A DNA stretch of 58,428 nt from NCBI GenBank assembly GCA_964520895.1, contig CAZFOR010000004.1, positions 1 to 58,428 on the forward strand, given 5' to 3'. A program made the translations under genes and the position numbers. The stretch comes from an uncultured Eubacteriales bacterium. Its GTDB lineage: Bacteria; Bacillota; Clostridia; TANB77; SIG350. Each line of letters starts with the position of its first letter. Position 1 is the stretch's first letter. The notes under the pieces are model-generated. The model made no database searches, was not told where the DNA came from, and was given only the letters and a program-made list of their open reading frames with translations. Below, piece after piece: positions 6,598 through 57,815 of this stretch.

Positions 6598-8172
6598 ATG
6601 AAAAAGAACGTTGTTAAAACTTTTAGTTTTATATTTATATTTACATTAATATCAAAAGTATTAGGATTACTTAGAGATGTTTTTTTTGCAAAATATTATG
6701 GAACAGGATATATTGCAACAGCTTTTTTTGCATCAATTAGAATACCTACACAGTTACTAGATATAGGTTTAGGTGCTGCGATAGCATCAACATTTATACC
6801 TGTATTTAATGAAATAGGACAAAAAGATGGAAAAGAAAAGGCAGACAAATTTGCTAATAACTTTATAAATATTATTGCATTAATATCAACTGCAATATCA
6901 ATTATTGGTATAATATTTGCACCACAAGTAGTTGAGTTGTTAGCAGGTGGATTTGAGGAGCAGACATTTAATTTAACAGTTCAATTAATTAGAATAATGT
7001 TTCCAATGATTATATTTACAGCTATTGCATTTTCATTTGTAGGATTTTTACAGTCATATGGTCAGTTTAATATACCTGCAATGATAAGTGGTGTATCAAA
7101 TATAGCAATAATTATATATTTAATATTATTTAGAGAAAAATTTGGTATACACGGTGTTGCATGGTTTATGTTAGTTGCATGGGCACTTCAAGTTATAATA
7201 CAATTACCATCTGCATATAAACATGGGTATAGATTTAAGCTTAAGATTGATTTTAAAGATCCAAACATACGAAAAGTTTTTTATTTAGCAATTCCAATTA
7301 TAATTAGCACATCAGTATTACCAATAAATAACTTAGTATGTACAAGACTTGCATCAGGTATGGGTGATAGTGCTGTTGCAGCATTAGAATATTCATATAA
7401 GATATATATTGTATTAGTAGGTGTATTTACATATGCAATAGGAAATATGATTTTTCCTGAACTTTCAAGAGCAAGTGCAAATAGTGATAAAACAACATTT
7501 ACTGATATAATTCAAAAAGGTATTAGAATAATGTCATATTTATTAATACCATTAACATTAGGGTTTATAATTTACAGAACTGATATTATATCAGTTATAT
7601 ATCAAAGAGGTGAATTTGATATTAATTCAACACTATTAACATCATCTGCATTACTATTTTATGCAATAGGAATGATAGGTTTTGGTATTGTTGAAATAAT
7701 GAATAAATCCTTTTATGCAAGACAAGATGCAAAAACGCCACTTGTAGTAGGAATTATAGTTGTTATTACAAATGTTATATTAAGCTTTATACTTTCAAGA
7801 TATATAGGATTTACAGGACTTGCATTATCAACATCATTAACATCAATAATAAATGCAATATTACTTACAATATTTGCAAACAAAAAAAATGGTGGAATTA
7901 TTACAAAACATTTAATATATACAATTATTAAAATAATTATATGTACAATTATAATGGCGCTTACTGTATATATAATAAATAATGCATTAATTTCAATATT
8001 GTTTGGTAGTACAATTATTAATATAATAAGAATAGGTATAGGGACAATATTAGGTTTAATGATGTATTATGGATTTAGTTTAATATTAGAAATAGAGGAA
8101 AGTAATATACCTATTAATTTTATTAAAAACAAACTTCAGACAAATGGGGACGGAGGCAAATTGTCTGATTAA
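6598..8172 (+). CDS. murJ: Lipid II flippase MurJ (MviN family)
   Basis: 524 aa and polytopic. The N-terminus LGLLRDVFFAKYYGTG is typical of MurJ. The last 11 codons (QTNGDGGKLSD) are encoded by repeat copy A. Confidence 0.85.
   Translation: MKKNVVKTFSFIFIFTLISKVLGLLRDVFFAKYYGTGYIATAFFASIRIPTQLLDIGLGAAIASTFIPVFNEIGQKDGKEKADKFANNFINIIALISTAISIIGIIFAPQVVELLAGGFEEQTFNLTVQLIRIMFPMIIFTAIAFSFVGFLQSYGQFNIPAMISGVSNIAIIIYLILFREKFGIHGVAWFMLVAWALQVIIQLPSAYKHGYRFKLKIDFKDPNIRKVFYLAIPIIISTSVLPINNLVCTRLASGMGDSAVAALEYSYKIYIVLVGVFTYAIGNMIFPELSRASANSDKTTFTDIIQKGIRIMSYLLIPLTLGFIIYRTDIISVIYQRGEFDINSTLLTSSALLFYAIGMIGFGIVEIMNKSFYARQDAKTPLVVGIIVVITNVILSFILSRYIGFTGLALSTSLTSIINAILLTIFANKKNGGIITKHLIYTIIKIIICTIIMALTVYIINNALISILFGSTIINIIRIGIGTILGLMMYYGFSLILEIEESNIPINFIKNKLQTNGDGGKLSD
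8136..8168 (+). repeat. 33-nt GC-rich palindromic unit, copy A: TCAGACAAATGGGGACGGAGGCAAATTGTCTGA
   Basis: Exact string comparison with the copies at 8237, 50078, 57744 and 57783. Confidence 0.95.
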
Positions 8173-8236: not shown

Positions 8237-8269
8237 TCAGACAATTTGCCTCCGTCCCCATTTGTCTGA
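8237..8269 (-). repeat. 33-nt GC-rich palindromic unit, copy B, inverted relative to A
   Basis: Its reverse complement is identical to copy A. Confidence 0.95.
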
Positions 8270-20712: not shown

Positions 20713-21339
20713 ATGATTGAAAATATATGTGACAAAATAACAAATAAGATTAAGAGTAAAAATCCTAATATGGATACAGAGAGATTAGAAGTAATAAATT
20801 TTGGTTTACAAGTTTTAATTGGTGAAGTTCCTAAGATTATGCTAATATTTTTATTTGCTTGGTATTTTGAAATATTAAAATTAACTTTAATAACATTTGT
20901 AGCAATTTCAATATACAGAACACAGGCAGGTGGATTCCATTTGGAGGGACATTTAAGTTGTTTAGGTTTTAGTTTGTTAGTATTTTGTGGAACAAGTTTT
21001 TTAGCAAAAACAATTGTGACTGAAAACGTATATTTACTATATACTCTTTATGGACTAATATTAATTTTTAATTTGTTAGTAATAAATAAATATGCACCAG
21101 CAGATACAGAGAAAATACCAATTATAAATATGAAAAGAAGAAGAACAAAGAAAATCTGTTCATATATAGCAGTAATTATTTTATATGTATTTGCAATATT
21201 TATATCAACTGATCAAGTAGTATCAAATATATGTGTGTTAGCTACATTGATACAAAGTATATGCATGACACCAATAACATATAAAATATCTAAATGTGAA
21301 TATGGAGAAATTACAAAGTTAGAGATGGACATGATATAA
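20713..21339 (+). CDS. agrB: AgrB-family accessory gene regulator protein (AIP-processing membrane peptidase)
   Basis: 208 aa, polytopic, with the AgrB signature RTQAGGFH. It is followed by a short AgrD-like ORF. Confidence 0.85.
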   Translation: MIENICDKITNKIKSKNPNMDTERLEVINFGLQVLIGEVPKIMLIFLFAWYFEILKLTLITFVAISIYRTQAGGFHLEGHLSCLGFSLLVFCGTSFLAKTIVTENVYLLYTLYGLILIFNLLVINKYAPADTEKIPIINMKRRRTKKICSYIAVIILYVFAIFISTDQVVSNICVLATLIQSICMTPITYKISKCEYGEITKLEMDMI

Positions 21340-21544: not shown

Positions 21545-21653
21545 ATAATATTTAGCTTACTTACTTTTACATAAAATGTAAAAAAGATTTCATATATTAA
21601 TTACCTTTAAACAACCATATAGATCCTAACTATATGGTTGTATTTTTATACAT

Positions 21654-22994
21654 TTAAAAAAGAACTTCAAGTTTTTGAATAAAGAATTTATCATTTTTAT
21701 TTGTTTTTAATTCAAGATTATCATATTTTTTTAATAATTCTTTTACCTCCCATAAACCAAATCCTGATTTTTTCTTTTTTGTTGAAAAATCTTTTTCAAA
21801 TATTTTGTTCGTATTTATATCCTTGTTTGCATATGTATTTTTAATAGTAAAGTTCTGTTTTCTATTGTAAAAATCAATTGATACATGTATTTCAACTAAT
21901 TTATCTTCACATAAACTAGCTGCTTCAATTGCATTATCAAATAATATTCCAAATATTTTAACAAAATCAAATATATTGGTATTTATTGTAGAATAATCAA
22001 AAAATGATATTAGATTAATTTTAACACCTTTTGTATCAGCATAATCATATTTTGCTAAGAACAATCCAAATAATGGAGGATTGTTTATTACATCAGGATT
22101 TAATAATGATAAATTATTTACTTTTTGTATTTCAGGAAGTAAACCAGTTTCATAATAATTTTCAAGACCATCTAAATCTTTCATTTGTATATATCCACCA
22201 ATTGCTTGAATGATATTATTTATATCGTGTTTAAAGCCTCTATTAGAATCAACTAATTTACTTAAATTTTTGTTATATAAATTTGCTGTTTCTAATTCTC
22301 TATCAGTAATATATGATTTGTTAAATTTATATGTATTGTATGTACCAATTAAGAAAAACACAAATGCACAAATTATATTGTATACAATATATGATGTTGG
22401 GATTTCCATATCAATTAAAATAAGAAATATCATATTTGGACAAACAATAAATAGTATAGCAAGTATCGTTAACGTAATTCTAAATTTATCTGCCTTATTT
22501 ATTTCATCAGATAAATTTAGATTAATTTTAAAAAATTTAGAAATGTATACTGTTATAAATGTTCCAAAATAAAGAAAAATGGTGAAAAGACATTTATATA
22601 TAGGTATAGAGTTAGCTTGATATATATCTAAAAATATAACTTTACAAACAAAAATATTAATTATATATTCAAAAAGTACAATTAATAATGATTGTATACA
22701 TTGTAAAATAATACTTTTAAATATAGATAAATTAAAGAGCTTAACCTCAAGTACAATAATTAACGCAAAAATTAAAATAAAACTGTAAGGCAGAGGTATA
22801 CTTAATCTTATTATACTGCACAATATTGTAGATATTATTAGAAATATTAATAATCTTTTTTTAGTTACATTTATATTATATATAGTTTTTGCTAGATAGT
22901 AGTATAAGCACATTTCGATTAAAGTTAATGGAAATGTTAAAATTCCACATAAAAACTGATTAGGTGTAAAAAAATAATTTATTATATTTTGCAT
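21654..22994 (-). CDS. AgrC-like sensor histidine kinase (6-7 TM sensor plus HPK10/GHKL), copy 1
   Basis: Polytopic N-terminal half, H-box FKHDINN, and C-terminal GHKL (FDNAIEA … SGFGLW). Its start overlaps the stop of the LytTR regulator gene. Confidence 0.85.
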   Translation of the reverse strand: MQNIINYFFTPNQFLCGILTFPLTLIEMCLYYYLAKTIYNINVTKKRLLIFLIISTILCSIIRLSIPLPYSFILIFALIIVLEVKLFNLSIFKSIILQCIQSLLIVLFEYIINIFVCKVIFLDIYQANSIPIYKCLFTIFLYFGTFITVYISKFFKINLNLSDEINKADKFRITLTILAILFIVCPNMIFLILIDMEIPTSYIVYNIICAFVFFLIGTYNTYKFNKSYITDRELETANLYNKNLSKLVDSNRGFKHDINNIIQAIGGYIQMKDLDGLENYYETGLLPEIQKVNNLSLLNPDVINNPPLFGLFLAKYDYADTKGVKINLISFFDYSTINTNIFDFVKIFGILFDNAIEAASLCEDKLVEIHVSIDFYNRKQNFTIKNTYANKDINTNKIFEKDFSTKKKKSGFGLWEVKELLKKYDNLELKTNKNDKFFIQKLEVLF

Positions 22995-23686
22995 GTTTGA
23001 ATACCTCCTAAATCTGGTAAAAATTTTGTACTATATTTTAATTCTTGTTTGTTTTTTAATATTATAGTTTTAGTTTTCTCATGAACGCAAACAATGTGGT
23101 TTCTATTTACTATATATGATTTACTTATCTGTATAAAGTTATCTGTCAGACAAGATAAAAGTTCTAAAAAAGAAATATACAATTCAATAGTATTGATAGT
23201 TGTATAAAAAATAGATTTAGTAACTTGTTTCTCAACATAAATTAGTTCATCTAAATTAATAATAGCATTTTTAATTTTAGTAAAATGTCCATGTGGAGTA
23301 TGTAACTTATTTTCATGTATTCTAACTAAGGTTTCTTCTAAATGAGGGTTTATAGAGGGCTTTGGAATAAAGTCAAAAGGATTGCAAGTAAAAGACAATG
23401 GCATCTTATCCATTCTTGAAGAAAGAAAAACAATAATAATATTTTTATCAATTTTACGCAGTTTGTTACCAAGATCTATACCATCCATATGGTTAGTTTT
23501 TAAATCAATATCTAGTAACAAAATATCAGTTTTATTCTCAGAAGCATAATTATATACTTTATCAGGGTCGCCAGTTGACAAAACACATTTTAAATCTAAA
23601 TCATGTTTGATAGAAATTTTCTTAAGACTTAATTCAACATCTTTTCTAATTATTTCTTCATCATCACAAATAATAATATTTAACAT
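22982..23686 (-). CDS. LytTR-family response regulator (AgrA-like), copy 1
   Basis: Receiver domain (IIICDDE … LLLDIDL) plus a C-terminal LytTR domain (ELIYVEK … ISKSYIVNRNHI). Confidence 0.85.
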   Translation of the reverse strand: MLNIIICDDEEIIRKDVELSLKKISIKHDLDLKCVLSTGDPDKVYNYASENKTDILLLDIDLKTNHMDGIDLGNKLRKIDKNIIIVFLSSRMDKMPLSFTCNPFDFIPKPSINPHLEETLVRIHENKLHTPHGHFTKIKNAIINLDELIYVEKQVTKSIFYTTINTIELYISFLELLSCLTDNFIQISKSYIVNRNHIVCVHEKTKTIILKNKQELKYSTKFLPDLGGIQTCKI

Positions 23687-23845
23687 AAAATCCCCACTTT
23701 CTGAATATATTTTAATTAAGAATAAACAGACTTGAGCAACACAAAATATTCAACTTAACATATTTAAAACCGACATTAATATATTATTACTTTTGTATAA
23801 TTTTGTCAATTAGTTTTTGAAAAGATATAAAATGTGAAAAGATAT

Positions 23846-23897: not shown

Positions 23898-24741
23898 TTA
23901 TTTTATAATGTTTGCAATTTCTTTTACTGCTAATATTGTTTCTTCATAAGTAATATCTTCAGCATAAAAGTAATCTCTTCTATAATTGTTCCAAAGTTTT
24001 TTTAATGTATCATCTGTTTCAATTGTATTAATTATTAAATCGATTTGCTCTAAGTTGCTTTGTGTTTCTCTAGAATTAAATTTATTAATAATTGCTTTTT
24101 TTAATATATTTTTATTATAGTTTTGACTTTGTAGTTTTTGTATAATGTACAAATCATAGAAATCTCTGGCTCTCGTATTTGCAGTACTTCTTGATATAAT
24201 AGTTTCGAACTTTTCACTTATAATAGTTTCCAAATTATAAGCTAGAACATTAATCTTTCTATCTTCAAATAATAAATCAAATTCATATTCTATTTCACTC
24301 GGAGTTATTGTGTCACCAGTTGTTATATCAATTCTGAAATTATGAATTATTGTTTGAAATTTTGCATTTAGTGTTACTCTATATCCTAAATAATCTGCTT
24401 CATCCCTAATATTTTTAATCATGACTATTTCAAAAGACACATCATCATCAACATCTATTTGTATGATTTCATTTAATATTTCATTTAATTTTACTTCTGA
24501 TAATTCAAAACCTTTTATTGTTGCATCCATATCTAATGTGTTTCGTAGATCTATTCCTACCATTGCACTTATTAGCATTCCGACCTTTTAATATAAAATT
24601 ATTTTTATATTTTGAAATAGATATTCTTTCCAACAATCTTTCTAGCATATAGTTTTGCAGTATAATATTGGCATTGACATTTGTATCTTTTGATAAATTT
24701 CGTATCCATGCTTTTAATTGTGCTGGGTTTTTAGCTATCAC
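23898..24741 (-). pseudogene. AbiEii/AbiGii-family nucleotidyltransferase toxin (type IV TA), frameshifted
   Basis: ORFs 24505..24741 (…NFILKGR) and 23898..24578 (MLISAMVGIDLRNTLDMDA…) together span about 281 codons. There is a one-base shift near 24576-24586. Confidence 0.7.
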
Positions 24742-25331
24742 ATTAACACCTCCATATAATTTTTTACTTTTTCAATAATATTTAATTTTTCTGCATACTC
24801 GTATAATTTTATAATGTTTTTATCTTTTCTTTCAACATATCTTTTCATTGCATCGGAAAATAAAGAAGCATCAATTTTATCTTTGTTTCGTATAATATCA
24901 CAAATAGTTCTTTCTAAATCATAACAATAAACTTCGTTTTGAAAAGGTGTCTTAATTTTTGTCTTGCCAATTTCATATAATTCTTCTTTTAAGTAAAAAA
25001 ACACATAATTATTATCTTTTAAAAGTCTACTATTATAATTTGAAGGAACAGTAGACATTAGTTTAATTGGTGTTCTATCAGATAATTGGTGAAAATATAA
25101 AGCTGTTGAATGTGAAAAAATAGCCTTATTACATATATGTTGAAAAACAACATAATTATCTTCGATAATATTGTTGTCTATATATAGTCCTCTTTCTATT
25201 CTTTCTATCAATCCTTTTTGAACTAGTCTTGTTAATGACATTTTACTAATATTTTCTTTTTTTAATAAAGATGTTTTTATAATGCCATTGCTATTTTTCA
25301 ATAATTCTAATACTTTTTCTTCATCAGTCAT
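24738..25331 (-). CDS. AbiEi-family antitoxin/transcriptional regulator (type IV TA)
   Basis: wHTH N-terminus (MSLTRLVQKGLIERIERGLY). Its stop overlaps the abiEii start by 4 nt. ATG at 25331 follows GGAGGTAA. Confidence 0.75.
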   Translation of the reverse strand: MTDEEKVLELLKNSNGIIKTSLLKKENISKMSLTRLVQKGLIERIERGLYIDNNIIEDNYVVFQHICNKAIFSHSTALYFHQLSDRTPIKLMSTVPSNYNSRLLKDNNYVFFYLKEELYEIGKTKIKTPFQNEVYCYDLERTICDIIRNKDKIDASLFSDAMKRYVERKDKNIIKLYEYAEKLNIIEKVKNYMEVLM

Positions 25332-25519
25332 ATTTGTTACCTCCGTTCGTATATATTTTAGCATATCCGAATAGAGGTAACAAGTCTTTTTAATAAAAAT
25401 ATAATTTTATCTATAAAAAATTATTACATATAAAGATATATTTGGTATATAAAATAAAAAAATAGAAGAACCAAATAGTGGAGATATAAATGGTTTTTCT
25501 ATTTTATAAATATTTGAGT

Positions 25520-26860
25520 TTAAAAAAGAACTTCAAGTTTTTGAATAAAGAATTTATCATTTTTATTTGTTTTTAATTCAAGATTATCATATTTTTTTAA
25601 TAATTCTTTTACCTCCCATAAACCAAATCCTGATTTTTTCTTTTTTGTTGAAAAATCTTTTTCAAATATTTTGTTCGTATTTATATCCTTGTTTGCATAT
25701 GTATTTTTAATAGTAAAGTTCTGTTTTCTATTGTAAAAATCAATTGATACATGTATTTCAACTAATTTATCTTCACATAAACTAGCTGCTTCAATTGCAT
25801 TATCAAATAATATTCCAAATATTTTAACAAAATCAAATATATTGGTATTTATTGTAGAATAATCAAAAAATGATATTAGATTAATTTTAACACCTTTTGT
25901 ATCAGCATAATCATATTTTGCTAAGAACAATCCAAATAATGGAGGATTGTTTATTACATCAGGATTTAATAATGATAAATTATTTACTTTTTGTATTTCA
26001 GGAAGTAAACCAGTTTCATAATAATTTTCAAGACCATCTAAATCTTTCATTTGTATATATCCACCAATTGCTTGAATGATATTATTTATATCGTGTTTAA
26101 AGCCTCTATTAGAATCAACTAATTTACTTAAATTTTTGTTATATAAATTTGCTGTTTCTAATTCTCTATCAGTAATATATGATTTGTTAAATTTATATGT
26201 ATTGTATGTACCAATTAAGAAAAACACAAATGCACAAATTATATTGTATACAATATATGATGTTGGGATTTCCATATCAATTAAAATAAGAAATATCATA
26301 TTTGGACAAACAATAAATAGTATAGCAAGTATCGTTAACGTAATTCTAAATTTATCTGCCTTATTTATTTCATCAGATAAATTTAGATTAATTTTAAAAA
26401 ATTTAGAAATGTATACTGTTATAAATGTTCCAAAATAAAGAAAAATGGTGAAAAGACATTTATATATAGGTATAGAGTTAGCTTGATATATATCTAAAAA
26501 TATAACTTTACAAACAAAAATATTAATTATATATTCAAAAAGTACAATTAATAATGATTGTATACATTGTAAAATAATACTTTTAAATATAGATAAATTA
26601 AAGAGCTTAACCTCAAGTACAATAATTAACGCAAAAATTAAAATAAAACTGTAAGGCAGAGGTATACTTAATCTTATTATACTGCACAATATTGTAGATA
26701 TTATTAGAAATATTAATAATCTTTTTTTAGTTACATTTATATTATATATAGTTTTTGCTAGATAGTAGTATAAGCACATTTCGATTAAAGTTAATGGAAA
26801 TGTTAAAATTCCACATAAAAACTGATTAGGTGTAAAAAAATAATTTATTATATTTTGCAT
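25520..26860 (-). CDS. AgrC-like sensor histidine kinase, copy 2 (protein identical to copy 1)
   Basis: The 446-aa translation is identical to 21654..22994. Confidence 0.85.
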   Translation of the reverse strand: MQNIINYFFTPNQFLCGILTFPLTLIEMCLYYYLAKTIYNINVTKKRLLIFLIISTILCSIIRLSIPLPYSFILIFALIIVLEVKLFNLSIFKSIILQCIQSLLIVLFEYIINIFVCKVIFLDIYQANSIPIYKCLFTIFLYFGTFITVYISKFFKINLNLSDEINKADKFRITLTILAILFIVCPNMIFLILIDMEIPTSYIVYNIICAFVFFLIGTYNTYKFNKSYITDRELETANLYNKNLSKLVDSNRGFKHDINNIIQAIGGYIQMKDLDGLENYYETGLLPEIQKVNNLSLLNPDVINNPPLFGLFLAKYDYADTKGVKINLISFFDYSTINTNIFDFVKIFGILFDNAIEAASLCEDKLVEIHVSIDFYNRKQNFTIKNTYANKDINTNKIFEKDFSTKKKKSGFGLWEVKELLKKYDNLELKTNKNDKFFIQKLEVLF

Positions 26861-27552
26861 GTTTGAATACCTCCTAAATCTGGTAAAAATTTTGTACTAT
26901 ATTTTAATTCTTGTTTGTTTTTTAATATTATAGTTTTAGTTTTCTCATGAACGCAAACAATGTGGTTTCTATTTACTATATATGATTTACTTATCTGTAT
27001 AAAGTTATCTGTCAGACAAGATAAAAGTTCTAAAAAAGAAATATACAATTCAATAGTATTGATAGTTGTATAAAAAATAGATTTAGTAACTTGTTTCTCA
27101 ACATAAATTAGTTCATCTAAATTAATAATAGCATTTTTAATTTTAGTAAAATGTCCATGTGGAGTATGTAACTTATTTTCATGTATTCTAACTAAGGTTT
27201 CTTCTAAATGAGGGTTTATAGAGGGCTTTGGAATAAAGTCAAAAGGATTGCAAGTAAAAGACAATGGCATCTTATCCATTCTTGAAGAAAGAAAAACAAT
27301 AATAATATTTTTATCAATTTTACGCAGTTTGTTACCAAGATCTATACCATCCATATGGTTAGTTTTTAAATCAATATCTAGTAACAAAATATCAGTTTTA
27401 TTCTCAGAAGCATAATTATATACTTTATCAGGGTCGCCAGTTGACAAAACACATTTTAAATCTAAATCATGTTTGATAGAAATTTTCTTAAGACTTAATT
27501 CAACATCTTTTCTAATTATTTCTTCATCATCACAAATAATAATATTTAACAT
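26848..27552 (-). CDS. LytTR-family response regulator, copy 2 (protein identical to copy 1)
   Basis: The 234-aa translation is identical to 22982..23686. Confidence 0.85.
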   Translation of the reverse strand: MLNIIICDDEEIIRKDVELSLKKISIKHDLDLKCVLSTGDPDKVYNYASENKTDILLLDIDLKTNHMDGIDLGNKLRKIDKNIIIVFLSSRMDKMPLSFTCNPFDFIPKPSINPHLEETLVRIHENKLHTPHGHFTKIKNAIINLDELIYVEKQVTKSIFYTTINTIELYISFLELLSCLTDNFIQISKSYIVNRNHIVCVHEKTKTIILKNKQELKYSTKFLPDLGGIQTCKI

Positions 27553-27702
27553 AAAATCCCCACTTTCTGAATATATTTTAATTAAGAATAAACAGACTTG
27601 AGCAACACAAAATATTCAACTTAACATATTTTAAAACGACATTAATATATTATTACTTTTGTATAATTTTGTCAATTAGTTTTTTGAAAAGAGGTATATT
27701 GT

Positions 27703-50077: not shown

Positions 50078-50110
50078 TCAGACAAATGGGGACGGAGGCA
50101 ATTTGTCTGA
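50078..50110 (+). repeat. 33-nt GC-rich palindromic unit, copy C (one A>T change that lengthens its own stem)
   Basis: TCAGACAAATGGGGACGGAGGCAATTTGTCTGA, starting 4 nt after the murE stop and ending 22 nt before the mraY start. Confidence 0.95.
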
Positions 50111-52229: not shown

Positions 52230-53342
52230 ATGAGAGCTTTAATTGTAGCTGCTGGAACAGGTGGACATATAACTCCAGGTATAAGTATAGCAAATAAAAT
52301 ATTGCAAGAAGATAAAAATAGTAAAGTACTATTTGTTGGAACAAAAAAAGGTATGGAAAATGACCTTATTAAAAAAGAAGGATATAATATTGCACACATA
52401 CGTGCAGAAGGAATTAGAAGAGAAATAACAATAGAAAATATTAAAAGTATAATTACACTTCTTTTAGGAATAAGAGATGCGAAAAAAATAATAAAGAATT
52501 TTAAGCCAGATATTGTAATAGGAACTGGTGGTTATGTCTGTTACCCTATATTTAAAATAGCAACAAGATTAAAGATACCAACAATATTACATGAAAGTAA
52601 TTCTATACCAGGAAAAGTCGTAACTACAATGGCTAAAAAGGTTGATACAATTTTAGTTGGATTTGAAGATACTAAAGATAAAATTAAAAATTGTAATAAT
52701 GTAATATATACAGGAACTCCTACTAAAATGAGTAAATATATACCAGAAGAGAATTTAAGAAGAAAGTTAGAACTTGCAGAAGATTTACCAGTTCTTTTAA
52801 TAACTGGTGGCAGTCAAGGTGCAAGAAAACTTAATGAATATTTAGTAGATATTATTTGTAATGAACAAAAAAAGAATTATCAAATTGTTTTTGTTACAGG
52901 ACCTAAACAATATGAAGATGTAATTACAAATATTCAAAAAAAGAATGTGAATATAGAAACCTTAGAAAATGTAAAAATACTACCATATGTATATAATATG
53001 AATGAATATATGGCAGTTTCTGATTTAATAATATCAAGAGCTGGTGCTTTAAGTATTACTGAGATATGTATTATGGGGAAACCTAGTATATTAGTACCAT
53101 ATCCATTTGCTGCTGAAAATCATCAAGAATATAACGCGAAAATAGTAGAAAATGCAGGTGGTGCAAAGGTGTTATTTGAAAGAGAATTAACAAGTGCTAA
53201 ACTAAATAATGCAATTGAAGATATTATTAATGATAAATCAAAGATGTATGAAATGGGAAATAGTGCAAGGAAAGTAGCTGTACTTAATGTAGAAGATAGG
53301 ATATATGTAGAAATAAAGAAATTACTTATAGGTAAGATGTAA
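52230..53342 (+). CDS. murG: UDP-N-acetylglucosamine--N-acetylmuramyl-(pentapeptide) pyrophosphoryl-undecaprenol GlcNAc transferase
   Basis: AAGTGGHITP…GTGGYV…TGGSQGA…RAGALSITE. Confidence 0.95.
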   Translation: MRALIVAAGTGGHITPGISIANKILQEDKNSKVLFVGTKKGMENDLIKKEGYNIAHIRAEGIRREITIENIKSIITLLLGIRDAKKIIKNFKPDIVIGTGGYVCYPIFKIATRLKIPTILHESNSIPGKVVTTMAKKVDTILVGFEDTKDKIKNCNNVIYTGTPTKMSKYIPEENLRRKLELAEDLPVLLITGGSQGARKLNEYLVDIICNEQKKNYQIVFVTGPKQYEDVITNIQKKNVNIETLENVKILPYVYNMNEYMAVSDLIISRAGALSITEICIMGKPSILVPYPFAAENHQEYNAKIVENAGGAKVLFERELTSAKLNNAIEDIINDKSKMYEMGNSARKVAVLNVEDRIYVEIKKLLIGKM

Positions 53343-53361
53343 GAAAAATAATAAAAAACTA

Positions 53362-53390
53362 TTGACATTAGTAAAAATTGGTAATATAAT
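53362..53390 (+). promoter_or_regulatory. Consensus sigma-A promoter of candidate antitoxin sRNA, module 1
   Basis: TTGACA (53362-53367), 17-nt spacer, TATAAT (53385-53390). Confidence 0.7.
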
Positions 53391-53396
53391 ATAAAC

Positions 53397-53461
53397 ATAA
53401 TAGAACCAATACAAATCCAATGGTTTTCACGAAAAAAAGAGCGATGTAACCGCTCTTTTTT
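53397..53461 (+). ncRNA. Candidate antisense/antitoxin small RNA, module 1 (about 65 nt)
   Basis: It runs from the consensus promoter to the intrinsic terminator and has no ORF. It contains a 15-nt motif complementary to the toxin RBS/start region. Confidence 0.55.
53432..53461. terminator. Bidirectional intrinsic terminator shared by the convergent transcripts, module 1
   Basis: A7 run, then AGAGCG-ATGTAAC-CGCTCT, then a T run. Confidence 0.7.
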
Positions 53462-53476
53462 CATTTTTTATGTATT

Positions 53477-53539
53477 CTATTTTTGAGTAACAATAATTAA
53501 AAGTAATAATAGAACTATAAAAGCAACCATTAGTTCCAA
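53477..53539 (-). CDS. Candidate type I toxin, 20-aa hydrophobic peptide, module 1
   Basis: GGGAGGTG SD, 7 nt, TTG start. Translation: (M)ELMVAFIVLLLLLIIVTQK, ending at a stop just before the shared terminator. Confidence 0.55.
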   Translation of the reverse strand: MELMVAFIVLLLLLIIVTQK

Positions 53540-53576
53540 TGGTCTTCACCTCCCATCTTTTTCGTGGGATGAGAAT

Positions 53577-53605
53577 ATTATACTACCATAAATTACCAAA
53601 AGCAA
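53577..53605 (-). promoter_or_regulatory. Promoter of the candidate toxin mRNA, module 1
   Basis: On the minus strand: TTGCTT, 17-nt spacer, TATAAT. It is followed by the 5' hairpin UCCCA-N9-UGGGA, which overlaps the SD. Confidence 0.6.
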
Positions 53606-53672
53606 GAGAAATCCATCGCAAGTTTCGACATAAAAAAAGGAAAACTAAATGTGTTATTTTTATAAAAAACTA

Positions 53673-53701
53673 TTGACATTAGTAAAAATTGGTAATATAA
53701 T
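53673..53701 (+). promoter_or_regulatory. Consensus sigma-A promoter of candidate antitoxin sRNA, module 2
   Basis: TTGACA (53673-53678), 17-nt spacer, TATAAT (53696-53701). Confidence 0.7.
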
Positions 53702-53707
53702 ATAAAC

Positions 53708-53770
53708 ATAAAGATTATTATAAAAATCCAAATGGAATCACGAAAAAAGAGCGTACTAGCGCTCTTTTTT
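53708..53770 (+). ncRNA. Candidate antisense/antitoxin small RNA, module 2
   Basis: Same layout as module 1. Its 15-nt motif is perfectly complementary to the RBS/start region of its own toxin. Confidence 0.55.
53743..53770. terminator. Bidirectional intrinsic terminator, module 2
   Basis: A6 run, then AGAGCG-TACTAG-CGCTCT, then a T run. Confidence 0.7.
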
Positions 53771-53785
53771 CATTTTTTATGTATT

Positions 53786-53848
53786 CTATTTTTGAGCAGT
53801 AATAATTAAAAGTAATAATAGAACCATAAAGAGAATTATTAATTCCAA
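53786..53848 (-). CDS. Candidate type I toxin, 20-aa hydrophobic peptide, module 2
   Basis: GGGAGGTG SD, 7 nt, TTG start. Translation: (M)ELIILFMVLLLLLIITAQK. Confidence 0.55.
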   Translation of the reverse strand: MELIILFMVLLLLLIITAQK

Positions 53849-53885
53849 ATGGAATCACCTCCCATCTTTTTCGTGGGATGAAAAT

Positions 53886-53914
53886 ATTATACTACCATAT
53901 ATTACCAAAAGCAA
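53886..53914 (-). promoter_or_regulatory. Promoter of the candidate toxin mRNA, module 2
   Basis: On the minus strand: TTGCTT, 17-nt spacer, TATAAT. Confidence 0.6.
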
Positions 53915-54043
53915 GAAAAATCAATCGCAAGTTTCGACATATAAGAAGTGTAATTTTTATATAAATATTTTAAATAAAATTGTATGCAAAAATATAATTA
54001 AATGATATAATCACTTTAATAAAAAAATTAAGGGGATGATAAA

Positions 54044-55189
54044 GTGAAAGTAAGTGTTATAGGTTCAACAAAACCAGGATTTGAATTAGATGTAAAAAGT
54101 GCATTAGATTTTGGAGGAAAATCAGCAGGTATTTGTTATTTATCAAATACATTTAATGATATATTAAAAGAAAGTGAAGAGAAAACTCAAAAAAGAATTA
54201 ATCAAACATTAAATAATAAGCATCATTCAGTATATGATCATGTATCATATAATCTATTGTTACAAGGTGTTCCTAAAATATTAGCAATGATAATAAATAA
54301 TGAAAAACAGTATACTACATCAGAAAAATCAGCAAGATATACACAAATGGAATTAGTTGGAGAAGAAAAACTGTTATATGATAAATGGTTAAATATATTT
54401 ATTGACAAAATATCAGAAAAATACCCAGAAATGGATGAAAAGAAGGTATTAAAACTTGCACAAGAAAATGCAAGAGGATTAACAAGTGTATTTACAATTA
54501 CTACAATGGAATATACTACAACATTAAGACAATTAAATAATATTATGCACATGTTTAATGAATATATTGAACAAGAAACAACAAATGAATTTGAAATTAA
54601 AATAAAGAAATATATGAAAGAATTTAATGATAATTTACAATATCTATATATTGAAGAGTTATATGATAAATCAAAGAGAAGAAGGTTATCATTGTTTGAT
54701 AATATGGAAAAACACAATGAAATATATGATGAAGTATATTGCAGTACATATAAAGCGAGTTTTGCGCAACTTGCACAAGCGCAAAGACATCGTACATTAA
54801 ATTATTCAATAAAAGTCTTAGAAAAACCAGAGTTCTTCACACCAATAATAATTAAAGATGATACAGAACTTTCAAATGATTGGATAAATGATATATCAAA
54901 ATTAAAAGACAATTATCCTCAATCAATGTATGTAGATGTTTGTGAAAGAGGAACATACGAGGATTTTGCATTAAAGTGTGTAGAAAGATTATGTTCATGC
55001 GCGCAACTAGAAATTTCACTTCAAACTCGTGATACATTAGATAAATATTTGGAAGGTGTTAAAAACACTAATAAAGAGGTATATGAATATTTAAAAGATT
55101 ACGATGTTGGTGGTAGATGTGGAATTAAAGGATATAGATGTTCTACTCCATGTAATTGGGGTGTTAAACAGTTGCAAAGATTAGTATAG
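54044..55189 (+). CDS. Divergent, elongated ThyX-family (flavin-dependent thymidylate synthase-like) protein
   Basis: GTG start after AAGGGGA. HHSVYDH, SEKSARY, ENARGL…T…LRQL and RLCSCAQLEISLQTR resemble ThyX motifs. RHRTLNYS occurs only at residues 248-255. Confidence 0.55.
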   Translation: MKVSVIGSTKPGFELDVKSALDFGGKSAGICYLSNTFNDILKESEEKTQKRINQTLNNKHHSVYDHVSYNLLLQGVPKILAMIINNEKQYTTSEKSARYTQMELVGEEKLLYDKWLNIFIDKISEKYPEMDEKKVLKLAQENARGLTSVFTITTMEYTTTLRQLNNIMHMFNEYIEQETTNEFEIKIKKYMKEFNDNLQYLYIEELYDKSKRRRLSLFDNMEKHNEIYDEVYCSTYKASFAQLAQAQRHRTLNYSIKVLEKPEFFTPIIIKDDTELSNDWINDISKLKDNYPQSMYVDVCERGTYEDFALKCVERLCSCAQLEISLQTRDTLDKYLEGVKNTNKEVYEYLKDYDVGGRCGIKGYRCSTPCNWGVKQLQRLV

Positions 55190-57743: not shown

Positions 57744-57776
57744 TCAGACAAATGGGGACGGAGGCAAATTGTCCGA
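57744..57776 (+). repeat. 33-nt GC-rich palindromic unit, copy D
   Basis: TCAGACAAATGGGGACGGAGGCAAATTGTCCGA (one T>C change relative to copy A). Confidence 0.95.
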
Positions 57777-57782
57777 AATATT

Positions 57783-57815
57783 TCGGACAATTTGCCTCCG
57801 TCCCCATTTGTCTGA
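57783..57815 (-). repeat. 33-nt GC-rich palindromic unit, copy E, the exact inverted partner of D
   Basis: Its reverse complement is identical to copy D. The spacer is AATATT. Confidence 0.95.

Follow-up and report, generated by a model that had tools for sequence, protein, structure and literature searches.

Type I toxin-antitoxin systems combine a gene for a small hydrophobic peptide with an RNA that is complementary to the mRNA of that peptide. In the par locus of Enterococcus faecalis pAD1 (Fst, RNA I, and RNA II), convergent promoters read toward a shared bidirectional intrinsic terminator, direct repeats (DRs) transcribed in opposite directions pair over the toxin initiation region, a 5′ stem-loop closes the Shine-Dalgarno (SD) sequence, and the small RNA (sRNA) spans about 65 to 70 nucleotides (nt) (PMC7472228). 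RNA II of pAD1 gives no protection against RNA I of the paralogue EF0409, and this is ascribed to variation in the DRs (PMC7472228). T1TAdb names two families, Fst/RNA II and SprA1/SprA1AS, as those that pair outside the 3′ overlap of their transcripts (PMC8594479). In Escherichia coli, Sib RNAs repress the cognate ibs gene only, via two recognition domains located in the initiation region and in the open reading frame (ORF) (PMC2943612), and 15 contiguous base pairs are enough for repression of zorO by OrzO (PMC3919570). One hallmark of type I loci, their tandem duplication within intergenic regions, has been used as a criterion to search for them (PMC2887945). Here, we analyze a stretch of 58,428 nt (GenBank assembly GCA_964520895.1, contig CAZFOR010000004.1, positions 1 to 58,428; 25.6% GC), hereafter the window, from an uncultured Clostridia-like bacterium assigned to the Eubacteriales, and report that the region between murG and thyX probably contains two tandem type I toxin-antitoxin modules with a layout of the par (Fst/RNA II) type. 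Both generic components are found in each module, namely, a gene for a hydrophobic peptide of 20 residues, at the lower end of the range of 20 to 60 residues given for type I toxins (PMC8594479), and a predicted RNA with complementarity to the toxin mRNA.

We read the repeats, promoters, terminators, ORFs, pairing energies, and clustered divergence described below directly from the sequence. The two units of ~310 nt (module 1, 53351-53661; module 2, 53662-53965) lie between murG (52230-53342) and thyX (54044-55189) and have the same internal order. A plus-strand promoter is followed by ~36 nt that are largely open, by a strong intrinsic terminator, and then by a convergent toxin gene, which on the minus strand comprises a promoter (TTGCTT-17-TATAAT), a 19-nt stem-loop, a GGGAGG SD sequence, a TTG start, 20 codons, a 3′ untranslated region (UTR), and the terminator. 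The plus-strand promoters, which are of the sigma-70 type (TTGACA-17 nt-TATAAT at 53362-53390 and 53673-53701), match the consensus at 12 of 12 positions, versus 9 of 12 for the weaker minus-strand toxin promoters (TTGCTT-17 nt-TATAAT at 53577-53605 and 53886-53914). The bidirectional terminator combines an 11-bp A/U-flanked GC stem with the loop AUGUAAC in module 1 (53433-53461) and a 13- to 14-bp stem with a CUAG-containing loop in module 2 (53742-53771). In both, an A run and a T run border the GC stem. Each terminator is common to the sRNA and the toxin mRNA of its module, both mRNA folds end in the terminator hairpin, and the predicted overlap of the two transcripts at this site is about 35 to 40 nt. 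Terminator scoring recovered the element of module 2 on both strands and that of module 1 on the plus strand only. Each toxin −35 box is closely preceded by a small, conserved inverted repeat, ATCGCAAGTTTCGAC (53613-53630 and 53922-53939), which may serve as an operator or form an insulating hairpin.

The feature that carries our interpretation is a pair of 15-nt direct repeats in each module. In module 1, the sRNA contains TCCAATGGTTTTCAC (= UCCAAUGGUUUUCAC) at 53416-53430 (plus strand), and the repeat at 53535-53549 reads TCCAATGGTCTTCAC on the plus strand and GUGAAGACCAUUGGA in the minus-strand mRNA. In module 2, TCCAAATGGAATCAC is present both in the sRNA (53727-53741, plus strand; = UCCAAAUGGAAUCAC) and at 53844-53858, where the mRNA from the minus strand reads GUGAUUCCAUUUGGA. 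A first-pass annotation of the DNA had located these four 15-mers and proposed that, as the sRNA and the mRNA come from opposite strands, the repeats form a 15-bp RNA duplex covering the TTG start. Our check of the sequence agrees with these positions and with the identity of the two module 2 sites (15/15), and the complementary target is in both modules nt 22 to 36 of the predicted mRNA. This target consists of the last G of the GGGAGG SD sequence, the spacer, the TTG codon, and 2 nt more. As had also been noted, the single T/C difference within module 1 amounts to a G-U wobble, in which a U of the sRNA faces a G of the mRNA, and the block has the same boundaries in the two modules, with identity ending sharply on both sides. 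The repeats are spaced by 117 to 119 nt in the DNA of each module.

Pairing is not confined to the 15-nt block, since module-specific helices reach into each ORF. The 5′ box of sRNA1 (53397-53410, plus strand) can form a 10-bp helix with 53506-53515 (sRNA nt 1 to 10) and a 4-bp helix with 53524-53527 (nt 11 to 14), and that of sRNA2 (53708-53721, plus strand) can form a 7-bp helix with 53826-53832 (nt 1 to 7) and a 5-bp helix with 53835-53839 (nt 10 to 14). Thus, each sRNA has two repeat boxes, like DRa and DRb of par. The first-pass annotation had drawn the comparison with DRa/DRb from the block, and the convergent promoters, the shared bidirectional terminator, and the 5′ stem-loop sequestering the SD sequence extend it. 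The computed duplex of the 5′ part of the sRNA with its own mRNA reaches −32.5 kcal/mol in module 1 and −30.3 kcal/mol in module 2. The means of dinucleotide shuffles were −13.2 and −11.7 kcal/mol (z = −7.1 and −6.7, respectively), and none of 2,000 shuffles gave a duplex as strong.

Comparison of the two modules revealed a mosaic, in which little or no difference is seen in the 50 nt of the sRNA promoter and start (53351-53400 in module 1; fully identical in module 2), in the 3′ arm of the terminator with the toxin 3′ UTR (37 nt), in the core of the ORF, and in the toxin leader. Differences are found at 14 of 36 positions of the sRNA 5′ part and at 12 of 44 positions of its target, which amounts to 26 of 80 in the pairing regions versus 9 of 179 elsewhere, a density about seven times higher (Fisher P = 1.4e-8). 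The loop of the terminator is completely replaced. Within the 15-nt block, the modules diverge at 5 of 15 ungapped columns, with the same changes at both sites; a crude estimate of the probability of such mirrored changes under independence is ~1.4e-6. The pairing determinants have thus diverged together within each module, and each sRNA is predicted to bind the mRNA of its own module much more strongly than that of the other module.

The pairing energies that the first-pass annotation had called for bear out its expectation of weaker pairing between modules. For the block alone, the duplexes are worth −22.3 kcal/mol (sRNA1 with mRNA1) and −22.6 kcal/mol (sRNA2 with mRNA2), versus −10.8 kcal/mol for sRNA1 with mRNA2 and −10.2 kcal/mol for sRNA2 with mRNA1. 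When the energies required to open the two RNAs are included, the cognate values are −13.9 kcal/mol (module 1) and −15.4 kcal/mol (module 2), and the noncognate values are −4.6 kcal/mol (sRNA1 with mRNA2) and +3.9 kcal/mol (sRNA2 with mRNA1). The gain in cofolding of the full-length RNAs is −36.9 and −28.1 kcal/mol for the cognate pairs of modules 1 and 2, respectively, −10.7 kcal/mol for sRNA1 with mRNA2, and −11.1 kcal/mol for sRNA2 with mRNA1. The asymmetry between the two noncognate pairs is accounted for by the 5′ end of sRNA1, ATAATAGAACCA, which matches the ORF of module 2 at 12 of 12 positions (53815-53826) and its own ORF at 11 of 12.

The transcripts predicted from these elements are two sRNAs of ~71 nt (module 1, 53397-53467, plus strand) and ~70 nt (module 2, 53708-53777, plus strand) and two toxin mRNAs of ~146 nt (module 1, 53425-53570, minus strand) and ~144 nt (module 2, 53736-53879, minus strand). 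The ends of the module 1 sRNA were set from the −10 box (start) and from the terminator (3′ end). All four RNAs are predicted to be more stable than shuffled sequence, with minimum free energies (MFE) of −16.6 and −20.1 kcal/mol for sRNA1 and sRNA2 (z = −4.5 and −5.7) and of −34.8 and −38.9 kcal/mol for mRNA1 and mRNA2 (z = −3.6 and −5.4). In the fold of sRNA1, a mostly open 5′ part precedes the terminator hairpin. Both mRNAs display the same order of domains, i.e., a 5′ stem-loop, a start codon hairpin, a long helix formed by the ORF and the 3′ UTR, and the terminator. The 5′ stem-loop (UCCCA-N9-UGGGA; 53551-53569, minus strand) covers part of the SD sequence (53549-53554) in module 1, and an identical stem-loop (53860-53878, minus strand) occludes the SD sequence (53858-53863) in module 2. 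This overlap with GGGAGG is predicted in the MFE and centroid folds alike. The start codon hairpins involve nt 27 to 46 of mRNA1 (53544-53525, minus strand) and nt 23 to 40 of mRNA2 (53857-53840, minus strand) and differ in sequence and register between the modules. Since the start codon region is predicted to fold into a local hairpin, the recognition block is partly self-complementary in each module, which in these models could permit a first contact between hairpins of the mRNA and the sRNA.

The minus-strand ORFs (53477-53539 in module 1 and 53786-53848 in module 2) start with a TTG codon located 9 nt past GGAGG and encode the 20-residue peptides MELMVAFIVLLLLLIIVTQK and MELIILFMVLLLLLIITAQK, respectively. 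Nine nonsynonymous changes and one synonymous change separate the two ORFs, and the start, the stop, the length, and the hydropathy (grand average of hydropathy, 2.29 versus 2.28) are retained. This pattern fits a peptide that would need only a hydrophobic helix and whose 5′ codons would double as an RNA target. Neither MELMVAFIVLLLLLIIVTQK nor MELIILFMVLLLLLIITAQK contains a P, G, or W residue and the tail is limited to QK, so that the Fst hallmarks (PXXXG[C], Trp, and a charged tail) are absent. In scans of the Pfam and NCBIfam models, no match to Fst or Ldr was obtained for either peptide at E ≤ 10, and no match to the Ibs family was reported in the Pfam scan at the same threshold. Two other candidate products were rejected. 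Frames of 40 and 46 codons starting with GTG were discarded because the GTG sits inside the SD sequence, the frame crosses the terminator, and hydrophobicity is absent; a homology search with these spurious overlapping frames returned no candidates. A peptide encoded by the sRNA was discarded because the 25-codon ORF of sRNA2 is not conserved in sRNA1 and lacks an SD sequence.

These features suggest the following mechanism, for which we infer transcription, toxicity, the translational block, repression, and the order of contacts. The weak minus-strand promoter would produce an mRNA of ~145 nt for a membrane-type peptide of 20 residues, the SD sequence being partly closed by the 5′ stem-loop and the TTG start held in a local hairpin. 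The convergent plus-strand promoter, which has consensus strength, would produce an abundant sRNA of ~70 nt that stops at the bidirectional terminator shared with the mRNA. In the DNA, the open 5′ part of this sRNA directly repeats the toxin initiation region, which makes the two complementary as RNA. The 15-bp helix formed by the sRNA would begin at the last SD base and span the start codon, and one or two further, shorter helices would lie within codons 3 to 11. The resulting structure would block ribosome loading, and the duplex would then probably be cleaved. By analogy with par, the complementary terminator hairpins may make the first contact.

The antisense pairing could also be genuine and the peptide an ordinary small membrane protein or a nontoxic product, in which case the locus would be an sRNA-regulated small-protein gene. 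We consider this unlikely, although it is the alternative to which we give the most weight. It draws on the lack of any match between the peptide and a toxin family model, as well as on the C terminus of the peptide, which has no charged or bulky tail of the kind that characterizes many type I toxins (PMC2887945). However, the tandem duplication within a self-contained insertion that is absent from the nearest relative, the much greater strength of the antitoxin promoter than of the mRNA promoter, and the triple occlusion of translation initiation are all features of type I systems, as are a length and a hydropathy similar to those of the Ibs toxins of 18 to 19 residues (PMC2943612; bioRxiv 10.1101/2025.05.26.656083). 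Slightly less probable again is a type I system controlled through the 3′ overlap at the terminator, by duplex cleavage and mRNA decay, with the 15-nt block being accessory or a relic of a partial duplication. The two transcripts must overlap by about 35 to 40 nt at the terminator, the modules have completely different terminator loops, and many Gram-positive type I systems do act via 3′ overlaps (PMC8594479). A relic would nonetheless not be expected to hold an identity of 14 or 15 of 15 positions with 5 of 15 columns swapped in step and identical boundaries, and in both families with this layout the interaction falls outside the overlap (PMC8594479).

The two remaining explanations dispense with RNA-RNA recognition. 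As direct repeats 117 to 119 nt apart, the blocks could act as DNA sites bound by protein, or they could have arisen incidentally through local gene conversion or template switching. We regard this as very improbable, since two repeat sequences would require two binding specificities and the modules contain no regulator gene, since 15-nt patches with nonhomologous flanks and the same sharp boundaries in both modules are too short for homologous conversion, and since one repeat falls inside an sRNA that ends at a terminator, whereas its partner coincides precisely with the SD-start region of the opposite strand. Fortuitous similarity in AT-rich DNA is effectively refuted. Runs of at least 15 Watson-Crick or G-U pairs did occur in 4 of 2,000 shuffles for module 2, but none of 2,000 shuffles attained either duplex energy, and chance would have to strike the same position in both modules with mirrored changes.

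The reading of the locus as two type I modules has to be balanced against several observations. The first-pass annotation treated the mirrored changes as covariation; the same 5 of 15 columns did change at both sites, but two sequences provide one strong comparison and not a phylogenetic pattern. Its division of the copies into two specificity classes holds for sRNA2, which is disfavored on mRNA1 (+3.9 kcal/mol), but less so for sRNA1, which retains −4.6 kcal/mol on mRNA2 (hybrid energy, −23.3 kcal/mol); orthogonality is thus incomplete, owing to the perfect match of 12 bp between sRNA1 and the ORF of module 2. The stem that closes the SD sequence derives no support from covariation, as it is only 5 bp long and identical in both copies. 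The transcription start sites are deduced from the promoter sequences, no Pfam or NCBIfam toxin model matches the 20-residue peptide, and none of the collections searched yielded a homologue, which limits the comparison to two copies.

Searches for further copies and relatives were carried out with DNA patterns, peptides, and family models. No third copy was found in the window with patterns allowing up to three mismatches or with blastn-short. In viral contigs, there was no match to the exact 26-mer of the toxin leader, to a 35-mer of the 3′ UTR, or to a 29-mer of the sRNA promoter, and a 21-mer had no match in JGI metagenomes. A 17-base pattern with a degenerate loop matched five unrelated sites in viral contigs and 36 sites in GTDB species genomes, all attributed to chance and mostly located in genomes of moderate to high GC content. 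The family signature SD-N6-DTGGAR-N42-54-CARAARTAR matched three viral contigs by chance and 42 metagenome sequences, none of which encodes a comparably hydrophobic peptide; the only intact in-frame 20-codon ORF among these 42 (L065) was also judged to be a chance match. Comparison of module 1 with plasmids and phages (blastn, word size 11) returned only promoter-like or AT-rich chance pieces, the best of which, on a Clostridium perfringens plasmid, proved on inspection not to be homologous, and tblastn with the 20-residue peptide returned nothing from the same collections. None of nine module ORFs was present in a collection of 15 billion proteins. With Rfam, a tRNA was the only match in the window at the gathering score, and only sub-threshold chance matches appeared at E ≤ 10 (best, 24.7 bits for a cutoff of 60 bits; BsrG, 14 versus 55 bits). 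The DNA scans needed exact pattern matches and would miss divergent relatives. Because of this requirement, and because public data contain very little from this organism, these results do not establish that relatives are absent. In phage contigs of ~50% GC from IMG/VR (L006, 5541-5566; L007; L009; L010), a small membrane protein ORF lies behind a leader with the SD sequence in a stem, CACCTCCCATTAAAATACTGGGATGA; its likeness to the toxin leader was judged to be due to chance.

The nearest ThyX, among 5.8 billion proteins, is 64% identical, and others, some of them labeled as Clostridia metagenome-assembled genomes, are ~55% identical. The relative with the nearest ThyX has no module, and its murG-thyX spacer is 116 nt long (L004, 4885-5000) versus 701 nt here (53343-54043). 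By this comparison, the two-module block is inserted, lineage-specific DNA. The toxin side of module 2 was recovered exactly in two independent Logan assemblies (L001 and L002), in contigs that end at the repeat, and exact look-ups with ThyX and MurG gave only short Logan contigs, which also end at the repeat.

Two other repeats were observed in the window. A perfect direct duplication of 2,113 bp (21653-23765 and 25519-27631) encodes an AgrC-like GHKL histidine kinase (446 residues) and a LytTR response regulator (234 residues). Between the two copies lies a type IV toxin-antitoxin pair, AbiEii/AbiEi (23898-24578 and 24738-25364, minus strand), and an AgrB-like gene is located at 20713-21339. 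The 100% identity points to either a very recent insertion or duplication of a cassette or an assembly artifact. Five sites (8136-8168, plus; 8237-8269, minus; 50078-50110, plus; 57744-57776, plus; 57783-57815, minus) carry, with no more than one mismatch, a 33-nt hairpin element, TCAGACAAATGGGGACGGAGGCAAATTGTCTGA, whose loop is GC rich; they lie just past gene ends and twice form inverted pairs. TCAGACAAATGGGGACGGAGGCAAATTGTCTGA belongs to no Rfam family at the gathering score and may be a REP-like (repetitive extragenic palindromic) or terminator-associated repeat.

A broader proposal, to which we give somewhat less than an even chance, is that the modules found an undescribed type I family in an uncultured Clostridia-like lineage of very low GC content. 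Such a family would combine a 20-residue toxin unrelated to Fst with the full RNA architecture of par, and its tandem copies would owe their near-orthogonal antitoxins to diversifying selection acting on the seed of the sRNA, on the target of this seed, and on the loop of the terminator. If confirmed, it would represent a sequence-novel, minimal (20-residue) toxin family under par-type regulation, indicating that the design based on convergent promoters, direct repeats, and a shared terminator is not tied to Fst peptides. The two modules would also offer a compact natural pair of near-orthogonal sRNA/mRNA switches, with a 15-nt seed, a discrimination of ~12 kcal/mol, and otherwise identical scaffolds, which could help to examine how cross talk is avoided between duplicated antisense systems and could supply parts for synthetic RNA regulators.

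Among known systems, par is the closest in layout, including the copy-specific pairing, to which we liken the lack of cross-protection between par paralogues due to their differing repeats (PMC7472228). The peptides differ, since Fst has ~33 residues with the PXXXG, Trp, and charged-tail features (PMC7472228) that the 20-residue peptides lack. The YUNR U-turn of par is not carried by all par homologues (PMC7472228); here, the terminator loop of module 2 contains CUAG, whereas the module 1 loop, GUUACAU, has no YUNR. The toxin mRNA of about 145 nt is shorter than its par counterpart, and the upstream helix that protects the 5′ end of RNA I is not evident, as the predicted mRNAs, with their deduced start sites, open with the SD stem-loop. 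Since the peptide lacks the Fst hallmarks and no Pfam, NCBIfam, or Rfam match was obtained, the locus appears par-like in its working but cannot be classified as Fst. In SprA1/SprA1AS of Staphylococcus aureus, pairing involves the 5′ domain of the sRNA and the initiation region. The toxin of that system, PepA1, is an Fst-family peptide of about 30 residues and has no sequence similarity to the peptides found here. The likeness lies in the arrangement, as the 3′ ends of the SprA1 and SprA1AS transcripts overlap and the functional pairing takes place outside the overlap (PMC8594479).

Ibs/Sib of E. coli resembles the locus in its almost purely hydrophobic toxins of 18 to 19 residues and in its tandem or multiple copies (PMC2943612). 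Sib is, however, a full-length cis-antisense RNA covering the whole ibs ORF, whereas the sRNA described here is convergent, pairs via displaced direct repeats, and ends at the terminator located 3′ of the ORF, overlapping no codon, which separates the locus from Ibs/Sib. Moreover, Ibs/Sib is proteobacterial, unlike the Clostridia-like host. ZorO-OrzO/ZorP-OrzP of E. coli O157:H7 is also a type I locus duplicated in tandem, and which copy is repressed depends on a short variable region of its sRNA (PMC3919570), but these sRNAs are divergent, are located 5′ of the mRNA without overlap, and pair in the 5′ UTR, and the toxin has 29 residues. Because copy-specific recognition has already been demonstrated in duplicated type I loci, namely, par, Sib/Ibs, and Zor/Orz, the modules do not open a new mechanism. 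Judged by its sequence, the locus is a new sequence family of an already well-known type of toxin-antitoxin switch.

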